Virus record (IMG/VR): IMGVR_UViG_2597490154_000001
DNA from: a virus
Taxonomy: Duplodnaviria > Heunggongvirae > Uroviricota > Caudoviricetes
Strand: one strand, 5' to 3'
DNA: 48,488 nt
The notes under the pieces are model-generated. The model was not told where the DNA came from. It searched no databases and saw nothing but the letters and a program-made list of their open reading frames with translations. Shown here piece by piece: positions 1 to 48,488 of this stretch (its first letter is position 1; every line of letters begins with the position of its first letter). The translations under genes and the position numbers were made by a program.

Positions 1-139
1 GCAAAAACCTATTGATAAGCAAATAATGAGGGCCGCGAGTTCTCTATCTCAATCATCTCAATCAACACCTATATCCTACTGGCTTTCGCTTCGGTTGAGG
101 CGAATCGTCGCATGGATTGACGTGTTTAATGAGGATTAA
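1..139 (+). CDS. possible 3' part of a tail assembly chaperone -1 frameshift extension (gpGT-like); only meaningful if the molecule is circular and the window end joins the window start
   Basis: Slippery heptamer T TTT TTG at 48463-48469, 8 nt before the stop of ORF 48197-48478; the -1 frame stays open across the 48488/1 junction and stops at 137-139, 5 nt before the tape measure start. Confidence 0.3.
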   Translation, partial: QKPIDKQIMRAASSLSQSSQSTPISYWLSLRLRRIVAWIDVFNED

Positions 140-7268: not shown

Positions 7269-9677
7269 GTGAGTAAATTATTATTTACGATGACTGACGC
7301 CGGGCGTCAGGAGTTGGTTAATGCCAACAAAACAGGAACAAATAAAGTTGAGATTGTTTCTGTTGGTTTAGGTGGTAGATATTATGTCACGTCAACCTCA
7401 CAAACAAATATAACAAACGAAATAAAACGACTTACCACAATAGGTGGCAAAGTTGTTTCCCCTGATACAATTCATGTAACGGCGAAGGATGATAGTAAAG
7501 ATGAGTATGTTGTCCATACAATAGGATTGTATACAAATAAGGGAACGTTGTTTGCTGTATACTCGCAAGAACAAGCAATAATAAATAAAGCATCATCTAC
7601 TATTGCTTTAATATCAAGTGACATAGCAATCAAGACTCTTGATACTAAAAATATTATATTTGGTGATGTTGAGTTTATTAATCCTCCCGCGACCGAAACT
7701 GTTGTTGGGGTTGCAAGATTTGCTAATGAACAAGAAATTGATGCAGGTACAGATGATTCCCTTGCTGTTTCAGCAAAGCGGCTTAAGCAAGCCATTGTGA
7801 AACATGAGCAATCACGTAATCATCCTGATGCAACTTTAACCTCAAAAGGCTTTGTTCAACTTAGCAGCGCCACCAATAGCACGTCTGAAACGCTTGCTGC
7901 GACGCCTAAGGCTGTTAAGGCAGCATATGACCTGGCTAACGCTAAATACACCGCACAGGACGCGACCACTGCGCGGAAAGGGATAGTTCAGCTCAGTAGC
8001 GCCACCAACAGCACGTCTGAAACGCTTGCGGCAACGCCAAAGGCTGTTAAGGCGGCATATGACCTGGCTAATGGCAAATACACCGCACAGGACGCTACCA
8101 CTGCGCGGAAAGGAATAGTTCAGCTCAGTAGCGCCACCAACAGCACGTCTGAAACGCTTGCGGCAACGCCAAAGGCTGTTAAGGCGGCATATGACCTGGC
8201 TAATGGCAAATACACCGCACAGGACGCTACCACTGCGCGGAAAGGGATAGTTCAGCTCAGTAGCGCCACCAACAGCACATCTGAAACGCTGGCTGCGACG
8301 CCAAAAGCTGTTAAGGCGGTAATGGATGAAACGAACAAGAAAGCGCCCTTAAACAGTCCTGCGCTGACCGGAACGCCAACAACGCCAACTGCGCCAAAAG
8401 GGACTAATAATACTCAGATCGCAAGCACGGCTTATGTGATGGCCGCGATTGCCGCACTTGTAGACTCGTCGCCTGACGCACTGAATACGTTGAACGAGTT
8501 AGCGGCGGCGCTGGGAAACGACCCGAATTTTGCGACCACCATGACTAAAGCGCTTGCGGGTAAGCAACCGAAAGATGCCACTCTGACGGCGCTGGCCGGG
8601 CTTGCTACTGCGGCAGACAAGTTTCCGTATTTTACGGGGAATGATGTCGCCAGCCTGGCAACCCTGACAAAAGTCGGGCGGGATATTCTTGCGAAATCGA
8701 CCGTTGCCGCTGTTATCGAATACCTCGGTTTGCAGGAAACGGTAAATCAGGCTTCTGGCGCATTACAGAAAAACCAGAACGGCGCAGATATTCCAGGAAA
8801 AGATACCTTCACAAAAAATATTGGTGCATGTCGCGCTTTTCACGGTGCTATTAGTACAGGGGCAGGGAACTGGACAACGGCACAATTGATTGAATGGCTG
8901 GATTCTCAAGGGGCATTCAATCACCCATACTGGATGTGCAAATGTTCATGGTCATACGGCAATAATAAAATTATTACCGATACTGGCTGTGGAACTATTC
9001 ATCTTGCAGGTTGCGTTATTGAGGTTATGGGTAATAAAGGTGCCATGACCATCCGTGTAACAACACCAAGCACTTCCAGCGGTGGCGGAATCACTAACGC
9101 TCAATTCACTTATATTAATCATGGTGATGCTTACGCTCCTGGCTGGCGACGAGACTACAACACGAAAAACCTGCAACCTGCATTTGCTTTAGGGCAGACA
9201 GGAAACAGGGTTGCAAATGATAAAGCTGTTGGCTGGAACTGGAATAGCGGTGTTTATGATGCAGACCTAAAAGGCGCATCAACATTAATCCTCCACTTTA
9301 ATATGAATGCGGGGAGTTGCCCTGCTGTACAGTTCCGCGTGAATTACAGAAATGGCGGTATCTTTTATCGTTCAGCGCGTGATGGTTATGGCTTTGAAGC
9401 TAACTGGTCAGAGTTTTACACCACAACACGCAAACCCTCTGCGGGAGATGTTGGTGCATATACGCAGGCAGAATGTAACTCAAGGTTTATTACAGGTATT
9501 CGCCTTGGCGGTCTGTCATCTGTTCAGACATGGAATGGTCCCGGCTGGTCTGACAGGTCAGGTTATGTCGTTACGGGTTCAGTTAACGGAAACCGTGATG
9601 AATTAATTGATACAACTCAGGCAAGGCCAATTCAGTATTGCATTAATGGAACGTGGTATAACGCGGGGAGTATTTAA
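7269..9677 (+). CDS. tail fibre protein (constant N-terminal part fused to currently expressed variable C-terminal part Sv)
   Basis: 802-aa ORF, GTG start with SD; tandem ~44-aa repeats ([19 protein letters not shown] motif); C-terminal third lies inside the invertible segment. Confidence 0.85.
7848..8330. repeat. tandem direct repeats, period 132 bp, about 3.7 copies, inside tail fibre gene
   Basis: Units start at 7848, 7980, 8112, 8244; near-identical DNA and encoded 44-aa units. Confidence 0.9.
8713..8738. other. gix/hix-like recombination crossover site (left), inside tail fibre gene
   Basis: TTATCGAATACC-TC-GGTTTGCAGGAA; reverse complement closely matches the right site and the Mu gix half-site TTCCTGTAAACC as I recall it. 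Confidence 0.7.
8723..8794. repeat. left arm of ~72-bp imperfect inverted repeat bounding the invertible segment
   Basis: Reverse complement of 11717-11788 with 2-3 mismatches; encodes peptide [16 protein letters not shown](N/K)QNGADIP in both fibre variants. Confidence 0.9.
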
Positions 9678-9679
9678 TT

Positions 9680-10213
9680 ATGATGCACTTAAAAAATATT
9701 ACTGCTGGCAACCCTAAAACAAAAGAACAATACCAGCTAACGAAACAATTTAACATCAAATGGCTTTATACAGAGGATGGGAAAAACTGGTATGAGGAAC
9801 AAAAGAACTTTCAGCCTGATACGTTGAAAATGGTCTATGACCACAACAACGTTATTATTTGTATTGAAAAGGATGTTTCAGCAATTAATCCAGAAGGCGC
9901 AAGCGTCGTTGAGGTTCCTGATATTACAGCAAATCGCCGGGCTGATATTTCGGGTAAATGGATGTTCAAAGATGGCGTAGTGATAAAGCGAACTTATACC
10001 GAGGAGGAACAGAGGCAGCAGGCAGAGAATGAAAAGCAAAGCCTGTTGCAACTTGTCAGGGATAAAACCCAGCTATGGGACTCACAGCTACGGCTGGGCA
10101 TCATTTCCGACGAGAATAAACAAAAATTAACCGAGTGGATGCTCTATGCGCAGAAAGTCGAATCTACAGACACCTCCAGCCTGCCAGTAACATTTCCCGA
10201 ACAACCTGAATGA
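9680..10213 (+). CDS. tail fibre assembly protein (Tfa/U-like)
   Basis: 177-aa ORF immediately after fibre gene; N-terminus MMHLKNI shared with inverted paralogue. Confidence 0.8.
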
Positions 10214-10216
10214 GAC

Positions 10217-10241
10217 AAGGCCCGATAGCGGGCCTTAATTT
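10217..10241 (+). terminator. rho-independent terminator between convergent Tfa genes
   Basis: Hairpin AAGGCCCGATAGCGGGCCTT followed by T-rich run. Confidence 0.6.
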
Positions 10242-10769
10242 TTATTCAGGCTTTTGTGGCCATTCAGGATTTGCCGTATCCACACGGCTGACCAGAACAC
10301 TGTAGCGTTCCCATGCTTCCAGTCGTGTGCGTTCCTCGTCTGTTGCCATATTCAGCCTGACAGCGCGTTCCAGCGGCTGGATGACTGATTCAGCTTCGGA
10401 AAACAATGCGGCCTTTTGTGATTCGGCTTGTTGTTGCTGTTCGTCTGCCGTATAAATCCGTTTAACTACAGCTCCATCCTTAAACATCCACTTTCCTGAA
10501 TCATCGGCACGACGATTGGCTGTTATATCTGGAATCTCAACGACACTAAAGCCTTCGGGATTAAGCGTTGAGGCATCTTTGGTTATGGCAACAATAATAT
10601 TATTTTCGTCGTATACAATCTTTATGGTGTCGTCCTGAAAGTTATTTACTTCCTCATACCAGTTTTTACCGTCCTCAGAGTAAAGCCAGACAACTCCGTG
10701 TTTCTTTGTTAATTCATACTGTTCCAGTGTTTTAGCGTTACCCGCTTTTATGTTCTTTAAGTGCATCAT
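10242..10769 (-). CDS. alternative tail fibre assembly protein (U'-like)
   Basis: 175-aa ORF on - strand, paralogue of 9680-10213, inside invertible segment. Confidence 0.8.
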
Positions 10770-10770
10770 A

Positions 10771-11790
10771 TTAAACGCTCGCTACATTATACCAGGTGCC
10801 ATTTATATACTTTTGAACGGGTCTGTAATAAACGCCCGCTATATTATCGGCAGAATTGGACCCTGTATCCTGAACATTAATACCAGTCAATACATGACCT
10901 GACGGGCACTGGAAATTCCATGTTTGCCAGTTATTCACGCCATAATATCGCTGTGAACCAAGTCGAACATCTTTCACATAACGGGAATCAAAGTTACCGT
11001 AATCTGAGGGATTAACACGCCCTGTAATATTTATGGTTTTATTACTTTGAATACTGCCGGAGACAAAGCGCATAACATGGACGTTATTAGCATAAACATC
11101 CAGATACCCGTCGCCATTTTGTTTAAATCCCGTGTCATTATCACCCAAAACAATCGAGTTACCGCCAAGAGCACTGGATGTTCCGATGCCCAGTGCACCA
11201 TTCAATTGACCGCCAGATAATGACAACGCCCCAACCTCAGCAGCAGTCGGTTTAATGTGCGAACTGTAAATTACATATACAGTTCCATCTGTCAGGCCTG
11301 TTGGTTTATTCGCTGTATAAGTTGGTGATGTATGAATCGTTACGCTGGCGTTACTGGTATAATCCCACTGAATATTAACACCTGTGGCGTAATTACCTAT
11401 TTCAACATAAACATCATAGGTATTACCGGATGTATTCACCCATGCAAAATTAGTAAATCCAACCGATGTCCGTCGCCATAATGCACCAGTAATACCTTTT
11501 GGATTCCCATTTCCGGCACGCAGAACCAGCTCAGAGATGCCTGCTTGATGCGAGGAGCCAACGTTATACCCTGCGCCACCAATCAGGCTTATGTAAACCA
11601 CGGAACTGGCTTGTGGCATTGTTACAGTTGCCAGTTTGAACCATCCAGCACCACCACTAAAAGACATGGTTGTTGAATTTGTTGTGCCGATATTACGCAG
11701 GAATAGTTTTTTATCGGGAATATCTGCGCCGTTCTGTTTTTTCTGTAATGCGCCAGAAGCCTGATTTACCGTTTCCTGTAAACCGAGGTT
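10771..11790 (-). CDS. silent alternative tail fibre C-terminal cassette (Sv'-like), expressed only after inversion
   Basis: Reverse frame open from crossover site to stop at 10771 with no stops; ORF track shows internal Met at 11667; shares junction peptide with expressed fibre. Confidence 0.75.
11717..11788. repeat. right arm of inverted repeat bounding the invertible segment
   Basis: Reverse complement of 8723-8794. Confidence 0.9.
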
Positions 11791-11798
11791 TTTGCGAA
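11773..11798. other. gix/hix-like recombination crossover site (right)
   Basis: TTCCTGTAAACC-GA-GGTTTTTGCGAA, two 12-bp half sites around a 2-bp core. Confidence 0.7.
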
Positions 11799-11862
11799 TT
11801 GCCTCTGTGTCGTCTGAACGATATTTTTTCCCGCTTTTAGCAACAATCGCGGTTTAGAAAGT

Positions 11863-12417
11863 ATGCAATATGGTTATGCGAGGGTGTCAACTTTTGACCA
11901 GAATTTGGAATTACAACTGGAGGCGCTCAGGAGTTTAGGATGTGACCGGATTTTTGAAGATAAAATATCCGGTGCTAAATCAAAACGACCAGGACTTGAT
12001 AAGCTACTTAAGGTGTTACGGCCGGGCGATACGGTTATTGTCTGGAAGCTGGACCGAATGGGGCGTTCCCTGATTCATCTTGTTGATTTACTTAACCATT
12101 TTTTATCAAACAACATTGAGTTTATTTCGATTACGGAAGGGATAAAAATTAGCACTTCAATTGGCCGCTTTGCCTACACGATGCTGAGTGCAGTCGCAGA
12201 GATGGAGCGGGAAAATATGATTGAAAGAACGCGTGCAGGATTGGCGGTGGCAAGGGCTAACGGCAGGATAGGAGGACGCCGCTCAAAGCTGGCACCAGAG
12301 CAATGGGAACAGATCGGAAGACTTATTGCGAATGGTGTTTCACGTAAGCGGATAGCGATTATCTTCGATGTTACCTTATCCACGCTTTACCGCAGGTTTC
12401 CGGCTGGGAATCATTGA
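11863..12417 (+). CDS. site-specific DNA invertase, serine recombinase of the Cin/Gin/Pin/Hin family
   Basis: 184-aa ORF; N-terminal YARVSTxDQ catalytic motif, resolvase-like core and C-terminal HTH; high similarity to P1 Cin as I recall it; adjacent to inverted repeats. An internal Fis-dependent enhancer is expected by family knowledge but not located. Confidence 0.95.
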   Translation: MQYGYARVSTFDQNLELQLEALRSLGCDRIFEDKISGAKSKRPGLDKLLKVLRPGDTVIVWKLDRMGRSLIHLVDLLNHFLSNNIEFISITEGIKISTSIGRFAYTMLSAVAEMERENMIERTRAGLAVARANGRIGGRRSKLAPEQWEQIGRLIANGVSRKRIAIIFDVTLSTLYRRFPAGNH

Positions 12418-12563: not shown

Positions 12564-12605
12564 ATGATTGTGGGTGTCTGGTTGGAAACTGACCAGATAT
12601 GGAAA

Positions 12606-12716
12606 CAAAAAGCCCGCAGATAAATCTGCGGGCTTCTTGCGACATCCACGGAAAACCAACAACAACAATCCATGGGCGCCTCGACAACTCCCATTATACG
12701 TTGGTTTTCCGTGGAC
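12606..12716 (-). ncRNA. candidate CopA-like antisense RNA of the IncFII-type replicon
   Basis: Large stem-loop (CCACGGAAAACCAAC ... GTTGGTTTTCCGTGG, 12647-12715) plus a hairpin at 12610-12634 that on the - strand is followed by a T-run; lies in the repA leader. Confidence 0.45.
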
Positions 12717-12730
12717 GCAAGAGCGAACAT

Positions 12731-13579
12731 ATGGATAGACCAATGCCGTCTCTACGTTCCGCTTACGTTTGTAATTTGTCGCCGGAGTTCCAGCCTCCAA
12801 AGCACCATACGCACAAGCTGCCGCTAGTGTTATCTGATGCTTTACAGCGCATTAATGGTCGTGATCTTACGTGTGAGGTTGCGTTCTACGTTAATCAGCC
12901 GTCAGAGCGGAAGCGCCGGATAAACGAGCATCGTCGTCGGGCGATTAATGCTGTGATTGCTGCGATTTTGCACCATGTAAACATCATTTCTAAGCGGGTT
13001 CTGGCCAGTGCTGAGGCGTTGGCTGATTTTTGCGGCCTGTCTACCGTATCCGAAGCTGGGAACAAGTCTATAACACGCTGTACAAGGGCGTTGTCGCAAC
13101 TGAAAGCGTTAGGTTTTATTGATTATGAACGTCGCTGGGATCGGGTGAATAAACAGTATTGGCCAGCGAAAATAGAGATTCGTGATCAACTGCTGGAAAC
13201 CGTTGGTATTACTGAACAAGCATGGAGACGTGCGGTTAGCCAGAAACTTAATTACTTCAATGCGAAGAATAGCGAACGGCTTAAAAAAGCGATAACGGAG
13301 GCTGATTATAAGCGTATTGTTATGCAGGAGCAGATGGAGAATGTATGGCGTCAGAGGAAGACAGCCAGAGAGATAAAGGCAAAACAGAAAGCAGCGGAGA
13401 GAGCTGCGCGTCTTGTTCAGGAAAAGGGAGAGGCCGAACTTCGTCATCAAATCACTAGAGAGGTTAGCCAGGAATTTGCTGATGGCATGTATCCTGGTGC
13501 TGACCTTGCATATTTACGATCCCTCGTTGAGCAGCGTTATAACAGGTTAAGAAAGACCTGGAAATCACTCCAACATTAA
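12731..13579 (+). CDS. repA: plasmid replication initiator RepA1 (IncFII RepA family)
   Basis: Clear similarity to R100/R1 RepA1 as I recall it (SITRxTRAL...LG(F/L)I.Y block, RRRAI motif); start set at internal ATG 12731 because 12599-12730 covers leader RNA structures. Confidence 0.85.
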   Translation: MDRPMPSLRSAYVCNLSPEFQPPKHHTHKLPLVLSDALQRINGRDLTCEVAFYVNQPSERKRRINEHRRRAINAVIAAILHHVNIISKRVLASAEALADFCGLSTVSEAGNKSITRCTRALSQLKALGFIDYERRWDRVNKQYWPAKIEIRDQLLETVGITEQAWRRAVSQKLNYFNAKNSERLKKAITEADYKRIVMQEQMENVWRQRKTAREIKAKQKAAERAARLVQEKGEAELRHQITREVSQEFADGMYPGADLAYLRSLVEQRYNRLRKTWKSLQH

Positions 13580-20888: not shown

Positions 20889-20921
20889 ATATAAATCTAT
20901 AAAACTATAATTATATATTAC
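20889..20921. repeat. AT-rich motif site (TATAAATCTATAA / ATAATTATATA family) between the two par genes
   Basis: Member of a dispersed motif family with at least 8 sites in the window. Confidence 0.6.
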
Positions 20922-21586
20922 GCGGCAGTAGTCAGAGCCTCAAGCTGGTTGATAATCCCCTGAATAACGTCGTCTGCTTTTTTGCGTGGCGCAACGTATG
21001 AGCACTCAATGAGGCTTAAGCCTTTATCCTGAGCTTTGCTCAGAGCTGGCTTGTGGGGAATGTACTTATCGACAACAAAGTATGGCGTATTAGCCAGGTA
21101 CTCTTGGGCTTCAATATAGTCAGCTTCGTTTTCAGCCGCGCCGGAAAACACCATGCAAATTTTCTTGATTGGTACACCCTTTTTAACGATGCCGTGAGCT
21201 GTGTTAACGGTGGTTTCCAGGTCATCGGTAGAGAATCTGGTTGGCAAAATAACCATATCCAGAAATTCAGAGAGCTTCGGTACTGATTCAGATGCGTAGG
21301 CACCGCCATCAACGATAACCAGGTCGTATACTTCTGATTCGATGATTTTCTGGACTTGTGATGGCGTGCCGCACGGCTGCGCCGCGATTGCAGGTTCGAT
21401 ATTGTTGGCCATTCTGCGTTGTACCCAACGCGTTACCGTTCCGTTAAGCACATCCATATCGATCAGGCATACATTCCAGCCAGCCTTTGCATAAGCAACT
21501 GCTAAAGCACGAGCAATGGTTGATTTGGTTACGCCGCCTTTTCCGTTGAAAATACCTACAGATATAGTCATTTGTCGAGACTCCAT
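20918..21586 (-). CDS. ParA/ParF-type partition ATPase (small Walker-type)
   Basis: 222-aa ORF with deviant Walker A GKGGVTKST near the N-terminus. Confidence 0.85.
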   Translation of the reverse strand: MESRQMTISVGIFNGKGGVTKSTIARALAVAYAKAGWNVCLIDMDVLNGTVTRWVQRRMANNIEPAIAAQPCGTPSQVQKIIESEVYDLVIVDGGAYASESVPKLSEFLDMVILPTRFSTDDLETTVNTAHGIVKKGVPIKKICMVFSGAAENEADYIEAQEYLANTPYFVVDKYIPHKPALSKAQDKGLSLIECSYVAPRKKADDVIQGIINQLEALTTAA

Positions 21587-28227: not shown

Positions 28228-28937
28228 CAATTGACTATCAGGTACTGCGTGAGGCGGCAGAAAAGGCAACACCAGACGAATGGGTCGCATTTATTTCGAC
28301 GGATACTGGTACTTATGCGGTGCACACGCCCGGTGATGAACGATGTGAAGACGTTATCAAATGGACCGGCTTTGATGGACAGAAAAATGCAGAGAACAAC
28401 GCTCGTTATGTTGCCGCGTTCAACCCAAAGGTTGCACTGGAGCTGCTTGGTGAAATTAAGCGCCTGGAGGACACAAATATTGATGCTATGTGTCGAATTG
28501 CAGAGCTTGAGACTAATCTCGCGGCGCTGGCGGCGGAGAATGAACTGGCTCGTAAGGCAGTTCAGGCATTCTGCGATGTTGTTGGCGACAACACCGAGGT
28601 TATCGCTGAGGAGGTTGGGCGAGATGGCGTTCTGGTTATTTTGGAGGCCATGAAGGCAACAGGAAATATTCCAGCCACCGATGCTTTTCTGGCTGAAATT
28701 CGTGCGGAAGCACGCAACGAGGGGATTAACTATACCGCCAGCCGTCTTGCTGCTGCGTTCAATCACGGATTTATCAATAAGTCTTTGCGTGAAGTTTTCG
28801 ACGTTACACGCATGATTTTGTCAGCGAAAGAAGAGTTGGCTAATGAAGCGCATCCGATTGATGGCCTGTCTGGTGAATATGCAGAGAAATCCCTTGAAGA
28901 ATGGGCGGAACAGATTCGTAAAGGAGGCGACAAGTGA
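28215..28937 (+). CDS. Ead/Ea22-like protein
   Basis: 240-aa ORF; N-terminal region resembles lambdoid Ea22-like proteins by recollection; coiled-coil middle. Confidence 0.4.
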   Translation: MARMTIDYQVLREAAEKATPDEWVAFISTDTGTYAVHTPGDERCEDVIKWTGFDGQKNAENNARYVAAFNPKVALELLGEIKRLEDTNIDAMCRIAELETNLAALAAENELARKAVQAFCDVVGDNTEVIAEEVGRDGVLVILEAMKATGNIPATDAFLAEIRAEARNEGINYTASRLAAAFNHGFINKSLREVFDVTRMILSAKEELANEAHPIDGLSGEYAEKSLEEWAEQIRKGGDK

Positions 28938-31090: not shown

Positions 31091-31166
31091 TGGCCCCTTA
31101 GCTCAGTGGTTAGAGCAGGCGACTCATAATCGCACGGTCATCGGTTCAAGTCCGGTAGGGGCCACC
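31091..31166 (+). tRNA. tRNA with CAU anticodon, most like tRNA-Ile2 (lysidine) rather than initiator tRNA-Met
   Basis: Folded by hand: 7-bp acceptor stem GGCCCCT/AGGGGCC, D-stem GCTC/GAGC, anticodon loop CTCATAA, T-loop GGTTCAAGTCC, encoded CCA; G1-C72 pair excludes initiator. Confidence 0.9.
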
Positions 31167-31475
31167 AATTCACTCTCACACATAAAGATAAGCGCGGTGG
31201 AGTTACTTCTTCGTGCTCATCTTTATGTGTGCCTGGTGCACATTTCGGGAAGCCGTTGGTTAGTGAGTACAGGCAGGGCCTGTTATCCGCAAAGGGGTAA
31301 AAGCTGGAGCGGCACGGAACTGTAGCCGTGTTACCAAAACAGCGTTGTCGGGCGATATCCGGCACACAACAGGCAAGGGCATTAATCAGTCTGGTTAGTG
31401 CCCTTTTCGTTGTGTCTGCTGTAGAGCTGGCCAGCGTTATGACTGCCGGAGATAAGCGCCGGAGGCACAACTAAC

Positions 31476-32063
31476 ATGGAGGCAATTGCATTGTTTAATC
31501 TGATTTATGCAGATCCCCCCTGGGAATACAAAGATAAGTGTAAGGATGGGAATCGTGGAGCTGGTTTTAAGTATCCAACGATGAAAGCTGAGGATATTGC
31601 TCGTATTCCTGTCTGGCAGCTTGCTAATCCTGAATCGTGTTTGTTGGCCATGTGGTGGGTTCCGACTCAGCCAGAAGAAGCGTTGCTGGTGGTGAAAGCA
31701 TGGGGATTCAGGCTTATGACCATGAAGGGCTTCACATGGAACAAATGTGGTAGCCGACAACCAGATAAGCTGGTGATGGGGATGGGGCATATGACTCGTG
31801 CAAACAGTGAAGATTGCTTGTTTGCGGTAAAAGGCAAATTGCCGACCCGCCTTGATGCGGGGATCATTCAGTCGTTTACATCGCCTCGTCTGGAGCATTC
31901 TCGGAAGCCTGATGTGGTTCGTGACAAGCTGGTAAGGCTGTTAGGTGATGTTCCTCGTATTGAGCTGTTTGCTCGCGGTGATTTACCTGATGGTTGGCAT
32001 GGCTGGGGCAACCAGTGCAATGGAGGTATCCAGTTGCATGATGCTCTCTGGCAAGTGGCATAG
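31476..32063 (+). CDS. MT-A70 family N6-adenine DNA methyltransferase (orphan)
   Basis: 195-aa ORF with catalytic DPPW motif (IYADPPWEY) near the N-terminus. Confidence 0.8.
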   Translation: MEAIALFNLIYADPPWEYKDKCKDGNRGAGFKYPTMKAEDIARIPVWQLANPESCLLAMWWVPTQPEEALLVVKAWGFRLMTMKGFTWNKCGSRQPDKLVMGMGHMTRANSEDCLFAVKGKLPTRLDAGIIQSFTSPRLEHSRKPDVVRDKLVRLLGDVPRIELFARGDLPDGWHGWGNQCNGGIQLHDALWQVA

Positions 32064-34046: not shown

Positions 34047-34670
34047 ATGACAAAACATCTTAATGTGGTTTCTTTACCACTTTCTGTGTTGATTGGTTAT
34101 GAAAAGAACGCTCGCACACACTCCGTGGAGCAGGTAGATCAGATTGTTGCCAGCATACAGGAGTACGGATGGACTAATCCGATCCTGATAGACGAGAACA
34201 ATGTTGTAATTGCTGGTCATGGTCGAATTGCTGCGGCCACTCAGTTGGGGATGGATGATGTTCCCTGCATTGTTCTGGAAGGGCTAACGGAGAATCAGAA
34301 GAAGGCATATCGTCTGGCCGACAACCGTATTCCGCTGAATGCTGGTTGGGATGAAGAGTTGTTAAGCGCGGAGCTTGCAGATCTTGCGGCCGATGATTTT
34401 GCTCTGGACTCAATTGGTTTTACTCAGCGCGAACTGGATAACTTATTGAGTGCGGCGGTCTACGATGACACAGAGGGTATGGATATCCCATTTGAGAAGG
34501 ATGAGGCCAAATCAGGCGTAAAAGTTCAGTACCTGTCATTTGGAGGTCATAAAATCCCGGCAACGGATGAGGAAGCGGATCGTTTTGACTGCGCGGTGTC
34601 TCGTTATGTTGATGATAATGGCAGCTATATCGGATTTGTATCCGCATTGCTGGCTGGGGAGGTGTGCTGA
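34047..34670 (+). CDS. ParB-like nuclease (ParB N-terminal) domain protein
   Basis: 207-aa ORF with AGHGR motif; paralogue of 37337-37927 (~60% identity in the N-terminal 100 aa). Confidence 0.7.
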   Translation: MTKHLNVVSLPLSVLIGYEKNARTHSVEQVDQIVASIQEYGWTNPILIDENNVVIAGHGRIAAATQLGMDDVPCIVLEGLTENQKKAYRLADNRIPLNAGWDEELLSAELADLAADDFALDSIGFTQRELDNLLSAAVYDDTEGMDIPFEKDEAKSGVKVQYLSFGGHKIPATDEEADRFDCAVSRYVDDNGSYIGFVSALLAGEVC

Positions 34671-36043
34671 TGCTTCACCTCAATTACGACATAACGCACC
34701 TACGCGGCGCGGAATATAACCCGCGTTTTATCGGTGAGGATGATCTTGCGAGGCTGGCGGAAAGCGTCAGGGAGCTGGGGCTTGTGAAGCCATTGATAGT
34801 GCGCGGCGATTTGCTGGTGGCGGGACACCAAAGGACGAAGGCGCTACGTAAATTGGGAATAACGCGTGCTGCGGTGTATGTGTTGCCCTGTGAAACGACG
34901 GTATACGACGAAGTACGGTTTAACCAACTGCATAACGGAACGGATTTTGATAGCGGAGATGAGCGTTGCAGGGTGTCAGGTCTGGAAGATAAGCATGGTT
35001 TTGTTCAGGTATCGGCAAGCCAGATCTCAGGCAATATGCGCGCGAAAATGGCATATGTTCGAAAGAACATAGCGGAACTGGTTATCAAGTATGGTCCGTG
35101 GGGTGGTTGTGTTGCGACTCAGTCTGGTGAGGTTATTCACTGTGCTCAGTATGCATTAGCAGCGAAGATGACGCGCACACCGCTAACGGTGTTTGTGATC
35201 CCTGATGTTGAGAAGGAAAAATACCAAAGTTATCTGAATAAAACTTATGGTGTATTTGAGTATTCTCATCTGGAGAAAACAACATACATCCAGACGTATG
35301 CGCAGCTTATGCGGTTGCGTAATGGTGGCAGCCTGAAATCAAACCTGTATGAGTCGTTGATCCTCCCGATCATTGCCAAGACGCCAAGAGGAATTGATTT
35401 TGGTTCGGGGCAGGGAGACTACGCGCGAATGCTCAGGGCAAAGGGATATAACCTGCATGATCTCGAGCTTTTCCGCCGTAAGGGCGCTGGAAACACTCTG
35501 GATAGGGCCGCAACAAACCGGATGATTGATACGCTGGTGGACGACTTAAAAACGCGAGGGCGTTACGACTACGTGATTTGCGATAGCGTTTTGAACTCGG
35601 TCGATAGTGTCGAGGCTGAATGGTCCGTTCTGACGGTTCTAAAAGGCCTGTGTAAAGCTGGTGGGTCAATATTCTTTTCTGGTCGTAGCCGTGGAGAGCT
35701 GGAAACAGTCCTGAAGCAAACACAAGCGGCGAGTTCCAAAAGCCGGCTTTATTTTATTGATCATAACGGTTTTACCGCGTTGTACCGGAAGGGGCACTGG
35801 TTTTACCAGAAGTTTCACTCTGATGATGAAGTGAAGCAGTTGTGTCGTGTACATGGTTTCAGGATTAAGCGGTCAATATTCAACTGTAAGAGCTGGTATT
35901 TGCACGTCATTAACGATGATTCCCTTAGTTGGGCGAGTCTGGAGAAAGCTGTTCGTTTTGAGTTTGAGTTGCCGTTGCCTGGTGGTTCAACAATCGGACG
36001 ATCTGATGATGTGCTGGCGGCTTTCCGGCCGTTGATTAAGTAG
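34664..36043 (+). CDS. fusion protein: N-terminal ParB-like domain plus C-terminal class I SAM-dependent methyltransferase-like domain
   Basis: 459-aa ORF; AGHQR box; C-terminal GIDFGSGQGD, acidic residue after beta-2, YDYVICDSVL; no DPPY/NPPY or PCQ/ENV DNA-MTase motifs. Confidence 0.6.
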   Translation: MLMLHLNYDITHLRGAEYNPRFIGEDDLARLAESVRELGLVKPLIVRGDLLVAGHQRTKALRKLGITRAAVYVLPCETTVYDEVRFNQLHNGTDFDSGDERCRVSGLEDKHGFVQVSASQISGNMRAKMAYVRKNIAELVIKYGPWGGCVATQSGEVIHCAQYALAAKMTRTPLTVFVIPDVEKEKYQSYLNKTYGVFEYSHLEKTTYIQTYAQLMRLRNGGSLKSNLYESLILPIIAKTPRGIDFGSGQGDYARMLRAKGYNLHDLELFRRKGAGNTLDRAATNRMIDTLVDDLKTRGRYDYVICDSVLNSVDSVEAEWSVLTVLKGLCKAGGSIFFSGRSRGELETVLKQTQAASSKSRLYFIDHNGFTALYRKGHWFYQKFHSDDEVKQLCRVHGFRIKRSIFNCKSWYLHVINDDSLSWASLEKAVRFEFELPLPGGSTIGRSDDVLAAFRPLIK

Positions 36044-36779: not shown

Positions 36780-37080
36780 TCATCGTGTGGTTGATGGTGT
36801 TGTTATGCAGGGTGTATTCACTGTGTTCTGTAGCGTCGCTCGCTGGCTGTCTGTGGGGGAGCACGAGCATCGTTTCATCGTCCGGCAGAATTGGGTCCTT
36901 CTGGCCAAAAGCGTTGGATGCGGGTCATTCGAACCCCGATGTTCGGCTAGCTAAACGTGAAAAAAGTTAGGTTAAAAGTTGCGGTAAAAGAAATTTACTC
37001 ATCTCATTGAAAAATATCGGGAAAACGTGATTTTTTGCTGTATTTGTGCTGGTAAAAAGAAAGTAGGAAATTTTCTTTTA

Positions 37081-37265
37081 GATCATCAAGATACGCGCAG
37101 ATCTTTAACCAATGTGATGTTGTTCTGATAAAAATCGTTATAAATCATGCAAATACATCCGATCTTTTAACCAAAACACCATCGCAAGATCCTTTTTACT
37201 TATAAAAACTTAATAAAATCAGATAATTATGCTGGTTTGTGTGATTTTTTATGAGTAAAAAGATC
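37081..37265. promoter_or_regulatory. GATC-rich intergenic region with direct repeats GATCTTT(T)AACCAA; candidate late promoter and/or packaging (cos/pac) recognition region
   Basis: Five GATC in 185 bp (37081, 37100, 37161, 37188, 37262); repeats at 37100-37114 and 37161-37177. Confidence 0.35.
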
Positions 37266-37336
37266 GTCATTTTTCTCTTTTAGTATCAATAAGTTAAACA
37301 GTTTTCTTTAACCTGTTGTGTTATGGCGGTTAAAAA

Positions 37337-37927
37337 ATGGCTCTAAAAATCGAATATTTACCAGTCGGTAAGCTGCTCAGATATGCCAAAAATTCACGGA
37401 CTCATTCAGATGAGCAAGTTGAACAGTTGGTGAACAGTATCCGTGAGTTCGGTTTCACTAATCCTGTGCTGATCGATGAAAAGAATGAACTGATTGCGGG
37501 GCATGGGCGGCTTGCAGCAGCCGAAATTCTGGAAATGGATAAAGTTCCGGCGATTCGGTTGAGTAACCTTTCTGAAAAACAGAAGAAGGCGTACAGGATT
37601 GCAGATAACAAGCTGGCCTTAAATGCTGGCTGGGATATGCAGCTTCTGGCCGAAGAAGTCAAAGAGTTAATGGATGATGATTTTGATATTGATCTGCTTG
37701 GGTTTAATGATGCAGAGCTTGACGAAATGTTAAGCGATGAACAGCCGCAGGAAGAAGACGATAATTCTTCCCCTGTTGTTCAAATTAAGTACCTGGCTAT
37801 TGATAAAGAACGTATTCCCGCGACGGATATGGAAATTGCATTGTTGCTGGATGTTTATCGTCAGTACCACGATGCGCATGAAACGCATGAGGGATTTGTT
37901 CAGTATCTTGCTAATGGTTGCAAGTAA
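37337..37927 (+). CDS. ParB-like nuclease domain protein, first gene of the packaging module
   Basis: 196-aa ORF with AGHGR motif; overlaps the small terminase start. Confidence 0.7.
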   Translation: MALKIEYLPVGKLLRYAKNSRTHSDEQVEQLVNSIREFGFTNPVLIDEKNELIAGHGRLAAAEILEMDKVPAIRLSNLSEKQKKAYRIADNKLALNAGWDMQLLAEEVKELMDDDFDIDLLGFNDAELDEMLSDEQPQEEDDNSSPVVQIKYLAIDKERIPATDMEIALLLDVYRQYHDAHETHEGFVQYLANGCK

Positions 37928-45895: not shown

Positions 45896-46186
45896 ATGGC
45901 TAATAAGAAAAGTAGTAAAGAAGATATAGAAAAGAAGGAAGATGTTGCTCAAACATTTGTATATATAGGACCAACAATCCCTCAACTCTCAATTTTGAAG
46001 CATAAACTATTTAAGAATGGCTTATCTCCAGAGTGTAAAAAATTAATATCACATATTCCTGGTGCAAAGTGTTTGTTTGTGGCAACCAGTGATTTTGCAG
46101 ATGCAGAGAAAAGACTTTCTGATAAAACCAGTGTCGAGTATGTAATGTACTCTAGAGTTTCTTCTTCTATCATGGAGATTAAATAA
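45896..46186 (+). CDS. hypothetical virion-module protein
   Basis: 96-aa ORF immediately upstream of the sheath gene. Confidence 0.3.
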   Translation: MANKKSSKEDIEKKEDVAQTFVYIGPTIPQLSILKHKLFKNGLSPECKKLISHIPGAKCLFVATSDFADAEKRLSDKTSVEYVMYSRVSSSIMEIK

Positions 46187-47649
46187 TGGGATATCGCCAC
46201 GGTATTTATATATCTGAACTGGCTACATCTATAACTCCTCCAGTGCAAGTTAGTGCTGGGTTGATTGTCGCATTTGGTACGGCTCCTGTTAATCAGTTAG
46301 AAGATCCAGCCTCAGCGGTAAATAAACCTATCATTGCTTATACATACGCAGAGGCCGTATCTAAAATAGGATATAGCACAAACTTCGAGAAATATACTTT
46401 AAGCGAAGTAATTAAAGTCGCATTTGGAATATATGGTGTTGCGCCAGTTGTATTTATCAATGTGCTTGATCCAGCAAAGCATAAGAAAGACGTTACTGAT
46501 GAGTTAGTAAAACTTTCTGGCGGGAAAGGTACGCTCTCTAACGATGGTGTCTTATATAAATCTGTTGTTGTGAAAAAAGCAGATGGTGATTCACCTGGGT
46601 TAACGGTTGATACCGATTATGTGCTGGCGCTGGATGATAATGGCTATACGGTCATTACAGCTATTAGCGGAGGAAAAATTACCGAAAAAGACGCTACTCT
46701 TAAGGTTAGTTATACGCATCTTGATCCCGGTGCCGTAACTAAAAATGACATTATCGGTGGTGTGGATTCCAACACTAAAGCCAATACAGGGCTTGAGTTA
46801 CTGTCAGATGTGTATCCCCGCTTCAAGTTAGTTCCTGGACAAGTGATTGCACCTGGATTTAGTTCTGATAGTGAAGTTGGTCAGCTAATGGCGGCTAAAG
46901 CCGCGCTGATTAGTGAATTGTTCAAAGCAGAAGCTATAACGGATGCGCCGACCGATAAATCTACTATCAGTGATTACTCGGCTGTTCCTGAATGGAAACA
47001 GAACAATAATCACATGGCCGCTAACCAGACAGTGTGCTGGCCGATGGTGAAACTTGGTGACAATATTTACCATCACTCAACCCATTTAGCGGCCGCAACA
47101 TGCTTGCTGGATAGTCAGTATGGTGATATTCCATCACGTTCTCCGTCAAATATAAAACTACAGATGGACGGTGCTGTACGTAAAGATGGCAGTGAAGTAT
47201 GGCTTAACATTAGCCAGGCAAACTACTTAAATGGACAGGGGATTGTAACAAGCCTTAATTTTGATGGTTGGAAATCATGGGGAAACCGTAATGCTATTTA
47301 TCCAACATCTACAGACCCCAAAGACGCATTTCGTGTTTGCCGACGTATGTTTAACTGGGTGGGTAATACGTTAATTCTTTCGCATTGGTCAAAAATAGAC
47401 AATCCTGCAAACCGTCGATTAATTGAATCGATTGTTACAAGTGCGAATATTTGGCTTAACGGCCTCACAGGTAATCAGGATATTGCAGGTGGTGTTGTTA
47501 CCTTTGATCAGTCTGAAAACACGATTACGTCATTAATGGACGGGATTGTTAAATTCCATGTAAAAATGACACCATTCTCACCTGCCAGAGATATTGAGTT
47601 CGTCATGGAATATAATCCTGATTATCTGCTGAACTTGTTTTCTGAATAA
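46186..47649 (+). CDS. contractile tail sheath protein
   Basis: 487-aa ORF followed by tube and chaperone genes. Confidence 0.8.
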   Translation: MGYRHGIYISELATSITPPVQVSAGLIVAFGTAPVNQLEDPASAVNKPIIAYTYAEAVSKIGYSTNFEKYTLSEVIKVAFGIYGVAPVVFINVLDPAKHKKDVTDELVKLSGGKGTLSNDGVLYKSVVVKKADGDSPGLTVDTDYVLALDDNGYTVITAISGGKITEKDATLKVSYTHLDPGAVTKNDIIGGVDSNTKANTGLELLSDVYPRFKLVPGQVIAPGFSSDSEVGQLMAAKAALISELFKAEAITDAPTDKSTISDYSAVPEWKQNNNHMAANQTVCWPMVKLGDNIYHHSTHLAAATCLLDSQYGDIPSRSPSNIKLQMDGAVRKDGSEVWLNISQANYLNGQGIVTSLNFDGWKSWGNRNAIYPTSTDPKDAFRVCRRMFNWVGNTLILSHWSKIDNPANRRLIESIVTSANIWLNGLTGNQDIAGGVVTFDQSENTITSLMDGIVKFHVKMTPFSPARDIEFVMEYNPDYLLNLFSE

Positions 47650-47665: not shown

Positions 47666-48187
47666 TTGAGCAATCAAATTCCTGAGAGACTTATTAACTT
47701 TACAGTATACGGTGAGGGAAACCGTATTATCGGTGTTGCTGACGCAAAGCTGCCATCAATTGAGATGATGACAGAAACTGTTAGTGGTGCAGGTATCGCT
47801 GGAGAGCTTGAGAGCGGAACGCTGGGGCATTTCAAACCAATGACTGTCTCTCTTAAATGGCGAACTCTGACCTCTGCTGGTACAAAATTATTTCTATCCT
47901 CATCGCATCAGGTAGATTTTCGCGGTAGCCAGCAGGTTTATGATGCAGGAACAGGAAAATATAAAACGGTTCCTATTCGGGCTTCAATGAAGCTAAATCC
48001 TAAAAAACTGGATTTAGGTTCGCTACAGGTGGCAAAGGCTACTGATTCAGAGAATGAATTTGAAGTTCTCTATATCAAATTATTTATTGATGGGAAAGAA
48101 GTCCTGGAAATTGATAAGTTGAACTTTATTTGTATCTTTGATGGTGAAGATATATTAAAAAGCGTTCGTGATGATTTAGGTTTATAA
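47666..48187 (+). CDS. tail tube protein
   Basis: 173-aa ORF after sheath with SD AGGAGG. Confidence 0.7.
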   Translation: MSNQIPERLINFTVYGEGNRIIGVADAKLPSIEMMTETVSGAGIAGELESGTLGHFKPMTVSLKWRTLTSAGTKLFLSSSHQVDFRGSQQVYDAGTGKYKTVPIRASMKLNPKKLDLGSLQVAKATDSENEFEVLYIKLFIDGKEVLEIDKLNFICIFDGEDILKSVRDDLGL

Positions 48188-48196
48188 GGTGACAAA

Positions 48197-48478
48197 ATGG
48201 AAACCGTTAAATTAAGTAAAGAATATCGTTTTGAAGACTTTGAGCCGGTGACTGAACTCAACCTTGATTTAGACAACCTAAAAGGCAGTGATATTTTAGA
48301 GGTATCGGACTTACTGCAATCTCAAGGGCATGTTTCAGTTCAAACATCACTTGATAATAAAGTCCATGCAGCCTTGGCTGCTCGCTGTATTGGTCGTCCA
48401 ATAGAGTATCTGAATGGATTACCAGCGAAAGACTTTGTTAAAGTTTGTCAAAAGGTACAGAATTTTTTGCTCTCGTAG
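48197..48478 (+). CDS. tail assembly chaperone (gpG-like) with candidate -1 frameshift site near its 3' end
   Basis: 93-aa ORF between tube and (across the junction) tape measure; slippery T TTT TTG at 48463-48469. Confidence 0.5.
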   Translation: METVKLSKEYRFEDFEPVTELNLDLDNLKGSDILEVSDLLQSQGHVSVQTSLDNKVHAALAARCIGRPIEYLNGLPAKDFVKVCQKVQNFLLS

Positions 48479-48488
48479 GTTTTGATGA

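Follow-up and report, generated by a model that had tools for sequence, protein, structure and literature searches.

We find that the 48,488-nucleotide (nt) IMG/VR virus record IMGVR_UViG_2597490154_000001, here called the window and meaning the whole stretch of DNA at its full length, is best explained as a circular phage-plasmid of Escherichia coli ATCC 25922 that was linearised inside a tail assembly chaperone gene, and that this gene carries a −1 ribosomal frameshift signal of the type described for the tail chaperones of phages P2 and lambda. We hold this explanation, taken as a whole, with high confidence. The gene would give rise to two products, a chaperone of 93 amino acids (aa) and a frameshifted fusion of 143 aa, and the sequence predicted to encode the C-terminal part of the fusion is divided between the end and the start of the record.

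The chaperone gene and its −1 reading frame

The 0 frame of the chaperone gene, the analogue of P2 gpE and lambda gpG, occupies positions 48197–48478 of the window (ATG at 48197, TAG at 48476–48478) and is represented in RefSeq by WP_000450805.1 ('phage tail assembly protein'). It ends in AAT TTT TTG CTC TCG TAG, in which the heptamer T TTT TTG (48463–48469) lies in the X XXY YYZ phase, as in the annotated P2 site, and encodes the end of ...N-F-L. After a −1 slip the frame would read GCT CTC GTA GGT TTT GAT GA/G and then CAA AAA ... GAT TAA, where the slash marks the window boundary that splits one codon. The peptide read in this frame is ALVGFDE followed by QKPIDKQIMRAASSLSQSSQSTPISYWLSLRLRRIVAWIDVFNED, ending at the TAA at 137–139. 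The first part of this E′-like extension (48469–48488) runs off the window end and the remainder lies at 1–139; with the two ends joined, the −1 frame stays open for 46 codons past the junction, the split codon included, and yields 52 residues beyond the slip. The +1 frame closes at 48485–48487, just beyond the 0-frame stop. The predicted 143-aa fusion has the junction peptide VQNFLALVGFDEQK, the slip-spanning tryptic peptide VQNFLALVGFDEQKPIDK and E′-specific peptides that include AASSLSQSSQSTPISYWLSLR.

The genes on either side are those expected of a contractile-tail module, all on the plus strand like the chaperone gene, its heptamer and its extension. The ATG of the tail tape measure gene (145–2937; 930 aa; Pfam PF10145 PhageMin_Tail, E = 1e-20; RefSeq 'phage tail tape measure protein') lies 5 nt beyond the TAA of E′, and its Shine-Dalgarno motif, GAGGA, sits in the 3′-end of E′. 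Upstream of the chaperone gene are the tail tube gene (47666–48187; 173 aa; Pfam PF04985 Phage_tube (FII), E = 3.5e-44) and, before it, the tail sheath gene (46186–47649; RefSeq 'phage tail sheath family protein'), whose 487-aa protein gave no Pfam match above threshold.

By profile and architecture, we assign the gene to the P2 gpE/Mu gp41 family of tail assembly chaperones (Phage_TAC_7). The 0-frame protein matches the Pfam family PF10109, whose description reads 'tail assembly chaperone proteins E, or 41 or 14', at 25.4 bits (E = 1.5e-5) over 78 of 79 profile positions. This match is marginal, but it has the support of PHROG 3140 ('tail assembly chaperone'; E = 8.7e-43). Alignment of the fusion to PHROG 3140 continues well beyond the slip site, as far as residue 137, and the 52-residue extension, when used by itself, finds PHROG 30074 ('unknown function'; E = 1.7e-31). 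No sequence relative with a solved structure was found.

An earlier reading of the window made from the letters alone (the sequence-only reading) had proposed a frameshifted tail chaperone, with the gene order sheath, tube, chaperone and tape measure continuing across the joined ends. The Pfam and RefSeq identities bear out this order, and the gene between tube and tape measure is indeed a Phage_TAC_7 member by our assignment, with a heptamer and product sizes like those of P2. On re-reading, its positions for the open reading frame (ORF) and the in-phase heptamer were all correct, and translation reproduced the 46 open codons across the junction, the stop at 137–139 and the 5 nt to the ATG at 145. 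One figure has to be amended: the heptamer had been placed 8 nt before the stop, and the distance is 6 nt, or two codons.

Conservation of the frameshift signal and of the extension

In seven diverged loci (34–46% identity) from Vibrio, Pararheinheimera, Faecalibacterium, Paenibacillus and Acinetobacter phages, an in-phase T TTT TT(G/C) is found at the homologous position, and the −1 frame is open for 50–60 further codons in all of them. In five of the seven this frame closes at or beside the annotated start of the tape measure gene; in the remaining two, HFM1 and Rostov 7, a few hundred nt separate its end from the annotated start downstream. The extensions of these phages align with one another, across phyla (Proteobacteria and Firmicutes hosts), and have the motif T-P-I-x-Y-W-L-S-L-P-L..EL in common, of which TPIxYWLSL in the extension of the window is common to the Vibrio, Pararheinheimera and Acinetobacter phages.

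For a larger sample the tube protein served as the anchor, the chaperone alignment being too diverged to seed a scan of the collection, and 160 loci from genomes and viral contigs gave 121 distinct chaperone homologues. A gene was scored as positive when it had an in-phase heptamer no more than 90 nt from the 0-frame stop and a −1 frame open from the heptamer on. By this test 115 of the 121 chaperone homologues were positive, against 9 of 118 adjacent tube genes, the heptamer being TTTTTTG in 78 and TTTTTTA in 28 of the 115. Four of the six homologues that failed do have a heptamer at 'NFL', but their 0-frame stop comes later and the distance to it is longer, which brings the total to about 119 of 121. 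Past the 0-frame stop, the median extension in the homologue set is 53 codons in the −1 frame versus 10 in the +1 frame, and the median gap between the end of the −1 extension and the next long ORF is 4 nt.

The codons at the slip site are kept far beyond what the protein sequence asks for. NNT-TTT-TTR codons occupy the xFL site in 111 of 112 homologues, compared with 7.8 expected from local codon usage, and in hosts with a GC content above 55% they do so in 25 of 25 cases, with 0.3 expected. This excess over codon usage argues that selection acts on the nucleotide sequence itself and, holding as it does across Proteobacteria and Firmicutes, it is a clean quantitative confirmation that the recoding signal is conserved, and not a new principle.

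The peptide encoded by the −1 frame is conserved as well. Between the window and an 80%-identical relative, the ratio of nonsynonymous to synonymous change (pN/pS) is 0.26 in the stretch that can be read only in the −1 frame, the other two frames containing stops. In 90 of 116 homologues the fourth residue of the extension is a glycine, part of a motif xxxG(L/F) that the A-L-V-G-F following the slip in the window fits. From these comparisons we identify the heptamer and the −1 ORF as a conserved recoding signal of the P2 gpE/gpE+E′ (lambda gpG/gpGT) type.

A different arrangement was observed in the viral record IMGVR_UViG_2880355930_000001, whose tube protein is 72% identical. Here, at about 2000–2450, the C-terminal part of the chaperone and E′ lie in one continuous frame (...VQSFFAGVGFD...LFNEDNK, followed by a stop), and the N-terminal part of the chaperone lies in another. 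This layout could be due to homopolymer sequencing errors, or it could represent a decayed or hard-wired copy.

The window is a rotation of a circular plasmid

Rotated to start at its position 35747, the record NZ_CP117232.1 (pATCC25922_4, 48,488 bp, annotated as circular) is identical to the window except for a single mismatch at window position 28883 (A in the window, G in the record). In this comparison no terminal overlap or terminal repeat was found between the two window ends. Taken together, the exact rotation and the lack of overlap mean that the window is a complete circular replicon with arbitrary ends, which we identify as the whole 48,488-bp phage-plasmid of ATCC 25922. The record was opened 10 nt past the chaperone stop codon, within the −1 extension, and this point corresponds to no end of the DNA molecule and to no junction of biological origin.

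The last 1,000 bases of the window were joined to its first 1,000, and this 2-kb query was matched without interruption in five phage records (98.2–99.3% identity), in 58 plasmid records (several at 100%) and in 70 of 5,426 complete E. coli genomes. Every one of the 76 placements in these E. coli genomes falls on a plasmid, with no chromosomal copy. The junction is present at 100% identity in at least ten records that differ in the position and strand at which they were opened, and several of the matching 48,488-bp records are independent assemblies of ATCC 25922/Seattle 1946, again opened at different positions or strands. In the phage records the junction is contiguous and lies about 11.5 kb from the record start. 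The sequence-only reading had concluded that the window is a circular molecule opened inside the tail module, had named the source assembly as the place to look, and had allowed for an internal piece of a larger chromosome as the outcome that would speak against it. A sibling record annotated as circular, together with a junction that is contiguous, often at 100%, in records opened elsewhere, upholds that conclusion, and a chromosomal origin finds no counterpart among the 76 placements.

In the 94,204-bp ATCC 25922 plasmid record NZ_CP032086.1 the tail junction is present twice. The duplication is probably an artefact, the 48.5-kb element having been assembled as a dimer or concatemer.

Alternative explanations

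The extension could in principle be reached by a route other than slippage of the ribosome. RNA polymerase might slip on the T6 run, so that in a fraction of the mRNAs one base is lost or two are gained and E and E′ come into the same frame, and sequence data alone cannot separate this mechanism from translational frameshifting. The conserved element is, after all, a homopolymeric run of six to seven T residues, the kind of sequence that is prone to polymerase slippage, and the T required at the end of the preceding codon not only completes X XXY YYZ but also makes the run longer. Nevertheless, we consider transcriptional slippage very unlikely. Efficient slippage sites of bacterial RNA polymerase usually need runs of about nine, for which T6 is short, and the run in the chaperone genes is locked in the X XXY YYZ phase. 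Furthermore, 106 of the 115 heptamers have G or A as their Z base, so that the A site holds a Leu UUR codon, a condition for the slippage of two tRNAs in tandem, and the homologous events in P2 and lambda have been described as translational frameshifts. Alternatively, there might be no recoding at all, the −1 ORF being either a separate small gene, for example one that starts at ATG 26–28 and encodes a 37-aa peptide (MRAASS...), or non-coding spacer DNA that happens to lack stops. A small ORF of its own is indeed annotated at this stretch in the records of XM1, KLER1-1 and Lily, PHROG 30074 is a family in its own right, and we estimate that in sequence of this composition a run of about 52 codons would be open by chance in roughly 5% of cases. 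However, ATG 26–28 is not preceded by a Shine-Dalgarno motif, and the first 20 codons of the extension lack an ATG in 69 of 116 homologues and any start codon in 33, with only 13 of the 116 having a start codon with a Shine-Dalgarno-like motif there. Moreover, conservation extends to residues that precede any possible internal start, such as the glycine at position 4, the heptamer is held against codon bias although a separate gene would not require it, and the pN/pS ratio rules out a non-coding spacer. We therefore regard an explanation without recoding as extremely improbable, and favor translational −1 frameshifting.

As to the topology, the window ends might be real physical ends, those of a linear virion chromosome, a linear plasmid or a fragment of an integrated prophage, in which case the continuity of the −1 frame across them would be a coincidence. 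Some relatives are deposited as phage genomes, and lambda-type terminases produce linear virion DNA with cos ends. Yet the window rotates exactly onto records annotated as circular and has no terminal repeat, the junction is contiguous in dozens of records, phage records included, and the break falls inside conserved coding sequence. No chromosomal copies were seen among the E. coli placements, and neither a protelomerase nor an integrase is annotated in RefSeq. A cos site would in any case be expected near the terminase genes, at about 37–38 kb in window coordinates, and not at the window ends. We regard physical ends as effectively refuted, with next to no probability left to them, and retain the reading of a circular element opened at an arbitrary point.

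A candidate stimulatory structure was observed downstream of the heptamer. It is a 9-bp hairpin with an 8-nt loop whose 5′ arm (48475–48483, plus strand) starts 5 nt after the heptamer and whose 3′ arm lies at 4–12 (plus strand), so that the loop crosses the junction and the hairpin itself is split by it. Compared with shuffled sequence, the local 40-nt segment folds with a z of about −3, and the 88-nt segment with a z of −1.1.

A number of observations weigh against our interpretation. TTTTTTG is not enriched in the window (22 found, 23.0 expected), and since its count is at chance level the heptamer cannot be used as evidence on its own. A downstream RNA structure shared across the family was not found: in 114 homologues, comparing downstream segments with upstream controls, the median z is −0.03. 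As the downstream segments fold no better than the controls, a stimulatory structure was rejected as a feature of the family, and the hairpin described above is at most a possible frameshift stimulator that is specific to the lineage and absent from the rest of the family. The PF10109 score is barely over the gathering cutoff (25), no NCBIfam model matches the chaperone, and a BLASTP comparison with P2 gpE+E′ was not significant (best E = 0.21), the alignment covering only 13 residues that end at the slip site. The circularity of the window is supported by sibling records of identical length and sequence, not by reads, and no record that starts exactly at the window origin was among the 60 plasmid records listed, 58 of which matched the junction query. 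Finally, slippage in the ATCC 25922 element itself is a prediction from sequence comparison.

Comparison with known systems

The closest parallel in organisation is the gpE/gpE+E′ pair of the FETUD tail operon of phage P2. The genes belong to the same family (PF10109) and stand in the same order of sheath (FI), tube (FII), chaperone and tape measure (T). The annotated −1 frameshift site of P2 gene E is T TTT TTG, identical in sequence and phase and placed at a ...FL dipeptide (...GFL in P2); the products are of 91 and 142 aa in P2 and of 93 and 143 aa in the window, and in both cases the extension ends at the start of the tape measure gene. The two differ in that E′ overlaps the start of T by 8 nt in P2, whereas there is a 5-nt gap in the window, and in that the 0-frame stop follows the heptamer after 18 nt in P2 and after 6 nt in the window. 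In addition, the head and packaging genes of the window are lambda-like and not P2-like, and its replicon is a plasmid, whereas P2 integrates.

A true homologue is found in Vibrio phage X29 (YP_009091831.1), which is 45% identical over the 0-frame part and has the same heptamer, also 6 nt before the stop, and an extension that aligns with that of the window, including the TPIPYW motif. In contrast to the window, X29 is a 41.6-kb linear Vibrio cholerae phage record, and there the frameshift is annotated, as a two-piece coding sequence named 'lambda gpGT analog'. The lambda gpG/gpGT pair differs in that lambda is a siphovirus with the heptamer G GGA AAG and a chaperone from a different protein family, for which no relationship in sequence is expected; the functions that we suggest for the products of the window are drawn by analogy with this pair.

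Like the phage-plasmids P1, N15 and SSU5, the element is an extrachromosomal prophage with replication and partition genes and a complete virion module, and it occurs only on plasmid records. It differs from the named types in its size of about 48 kb, its contractile tail, its lambda-like head genes and its IncFII-type RepA.

Gene content and lifestyle of the element

The window encodes a plasmid replication initiator, RepA (12599–13579, plus strand; Pfam PF02387 IncFII_repA, E = 5.9e-44; RefSeq repA), a ParA-type partition ATPase (20918–21586, minus strand; Pfam CbiA/ParA/MipZ; RefSeq 'ParA family protein') and a RelE/ParE toxin with a helix-turn-helix partner. The RefSeq annotation and Pfam together give a virion, packaging and lysis set of terminase, portal, protease, capsid, sheath, tube, tape measure, baseplate, tail fibres, holins and endolysin, with gpX-like and gpD-like genes downstream of the tape measure gene. 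By Pfam, the large terminase is of the lambda type (gpA terminase) and the portal is of the lambda family. No integrase or protelomerase is present in the RefSeq annotation of the element, not every ORF having been scanned with Pfam; the only recombinase is a small serine recombinase of the invertase type (11863–12417, plus strand; 184 aa; Pfam Resolvase, E = 9.7e-45, plus HTH_7). We identify the element from these genes as a myovirus-type prophage that is maintained as a plasmid with an IncFII RepA and a ParA. The plasmid-form prophage without an integrase that had been suggested for the window agrees with the IncFII RepA, the ParA, the lack of an annotated integrase and the placement on plasmids in 76 of 76 cases.

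The serine recombinase gene lies at the end of a tail-fibre region (7269–12417) with two 83-nt inverted repeats, 93% complementary, at 8719–8801 and 11710–11792. One repeat is inside the gene for an 802-aa tail fibre and the other is just upstream of the recombinase gene. The two repeats enclose a pair of fibre-assembly genes in opposite orientation and an alternative C-terminus for the fibre, given in RefSeq as a pseudogene 'missing N-terminus'. The region looks like an invertible tail-fibre segment of the Mu-G/P1-C type, not an integration system, and would probably serve to switch host range.

A stretch of about 380 nt at about 36955–37336 has no ORF of 60 aa or more and is upstream of ParB-like, small-terminase and terminase genes. 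The Yersinia phage records, placed on the window by the distance of their position 1 from the chaperone gene, begin at about 36.9 kb. Given the lambda-type terminase, this stretch is the likely place of the cos site. Three proteins with a ParB N-terminal domain (34047–34670, 34664–36043 and 37337–37927) are encoded just upstream of the terminase genes, one of them fused to a methyltransferase domain, and an MT-A70 methyltransferase is encoded at 31476–32063; roles in partition, packaging or anti-restriction are possible for these proteins. The single tRNA gene (31092–31167) has the anticodon CAT and is called tRNA-Met by ARAGORN and tRNA-Ile by RefSeq. The latter would be consistent with a lysidine-modified tRNA-Ile2.

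Distribution and lineage

Near-identical tail DNA is found on plasmids of about 46–52 kb in 70 of the 5,426 complete E. coli genomes (~1.3%), and also on plasmids of E. fergusonii, E. albertii and Klebsiella aerogenes. Relatives have been deposited as Yersinia phages vB_YpM_39, 41 and 44 (host Y. pestis EV76), which are 98–99% identical over the 2-kb tail region, and the partial records of Escherichia phages vB_EcoM-613R2 and 473R2 carry near-identical tail DNA as well. The well-defined phage-plasmid types in the literature are AB, P1, N15 and the SSU5-related group. P1, N15 and SSU5 phages were absent from the megablast and tblastn matches to the tail region of the window, the region that was searched, and we found no paper on vB_YpM_39/41/44 or on the 48.5-kb plasmid group. 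We tentatively suggest, at somewhat below even chances, that the element belongs to a widespread phage-plasmid lineage without formal characterisation, outside the P1, N15, SSU5 and AB types. If so, this lineage would be marked by an IncFII-type RepA, lambda-like head genes, a contractile tail and an invertible tail-fibre segment.

Three leads from the literature were rejected. The pSLy3 group is not the home of the element, as pSLy3 belongs to the ~100-kb SSU5 supergroup. Yersinia phage HQ103, described as a plasmid-like 'pseudolysogen', gives no support for the lifestyle, as it is an unrelated 32-kb Peduovirus. A paper on phage-plasmids of enterotoxigenic E. coli is not a source on the element, ATCC 25922 being named there only as a quality control strain.

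Proposed mechanism and implications

We suggest that the majority of ribosomes would terminate at the TAG at 48476–48478 and release the 93-aa chaperone. A minority would slip by −1 on U UUU UUG, with the P-site tRNA-Phe and the A-site tRNA-Leu re-pairing on UUU UUU, and would then read 52 further codons across the record origin to the stop at 137–139, giving the 143-aa fusion. By analogy with lambda, the N-terminal part shared by both products would coat the tape measure protein encoded directly downstream, the C-terminal domain encoded in the −1 frame would recruit the tube protein, and a fixed ratio of the two products would be needed for a tail of the correct length. The tail-chaperone frameshifts of lambda G/GT and of P2 have been described as translational (reviewed in PMC5009743, which cites Levin, 1993; Xu, 2004; Xu, 2013; Xu, 2014), and P2-type sites shift 2- to 3-fold more than that of lambda, whose product ratio is about 30:1 (PMC5009743). 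We infer slippage in the ATCC 25922 element, as well as its efficiency and the binding partners of both products, from these parallels. Neither gpG nor gpGT of lambda is present in mature virions (PMC5009743), and mass spectrometry of virions may therefore miss the fusion product.

In the databases the fusion is invisible for this element. The RefSeq annotation, made by the Prokaryotic Genome Annotation Pipeline, has the 93-aa protein only and leaves the next 154 nt (48479–48488 and 1–144) blank, as does a near-identical Yersinia phage record, and the 143-aa fusion is without annotation in RefSeq and in the related phage records. Elsewhere the −1 extension is treated inconsistently, being the separate small ORF already mentioned in XM1, KLER1-1 and Lily and part of a joined coding sequence in X29; the same inconsistency across databases concerns the corresponding stretches of three related loci in our set (L005, 1767–1937; L006, 1818–1943; L008, 1809–1931). 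The 'unknown function' family PHROG 30074 seems to correspond to the half of the chaperone that is reached by frameshifting.

In conclusion, the finding is an ordinary one, a missing annotation of a textbook recoding event (lambda G/GT, P2 E/E+E′) combined with a correct inference of circularity. We point out that a reading frame that runs off the end of a record can reveal circular topology from the sequence alone. The main value is practical, in that a 143-aa protein is missing from the annotation of the element, one that is probably essential for the assembly of its tail.

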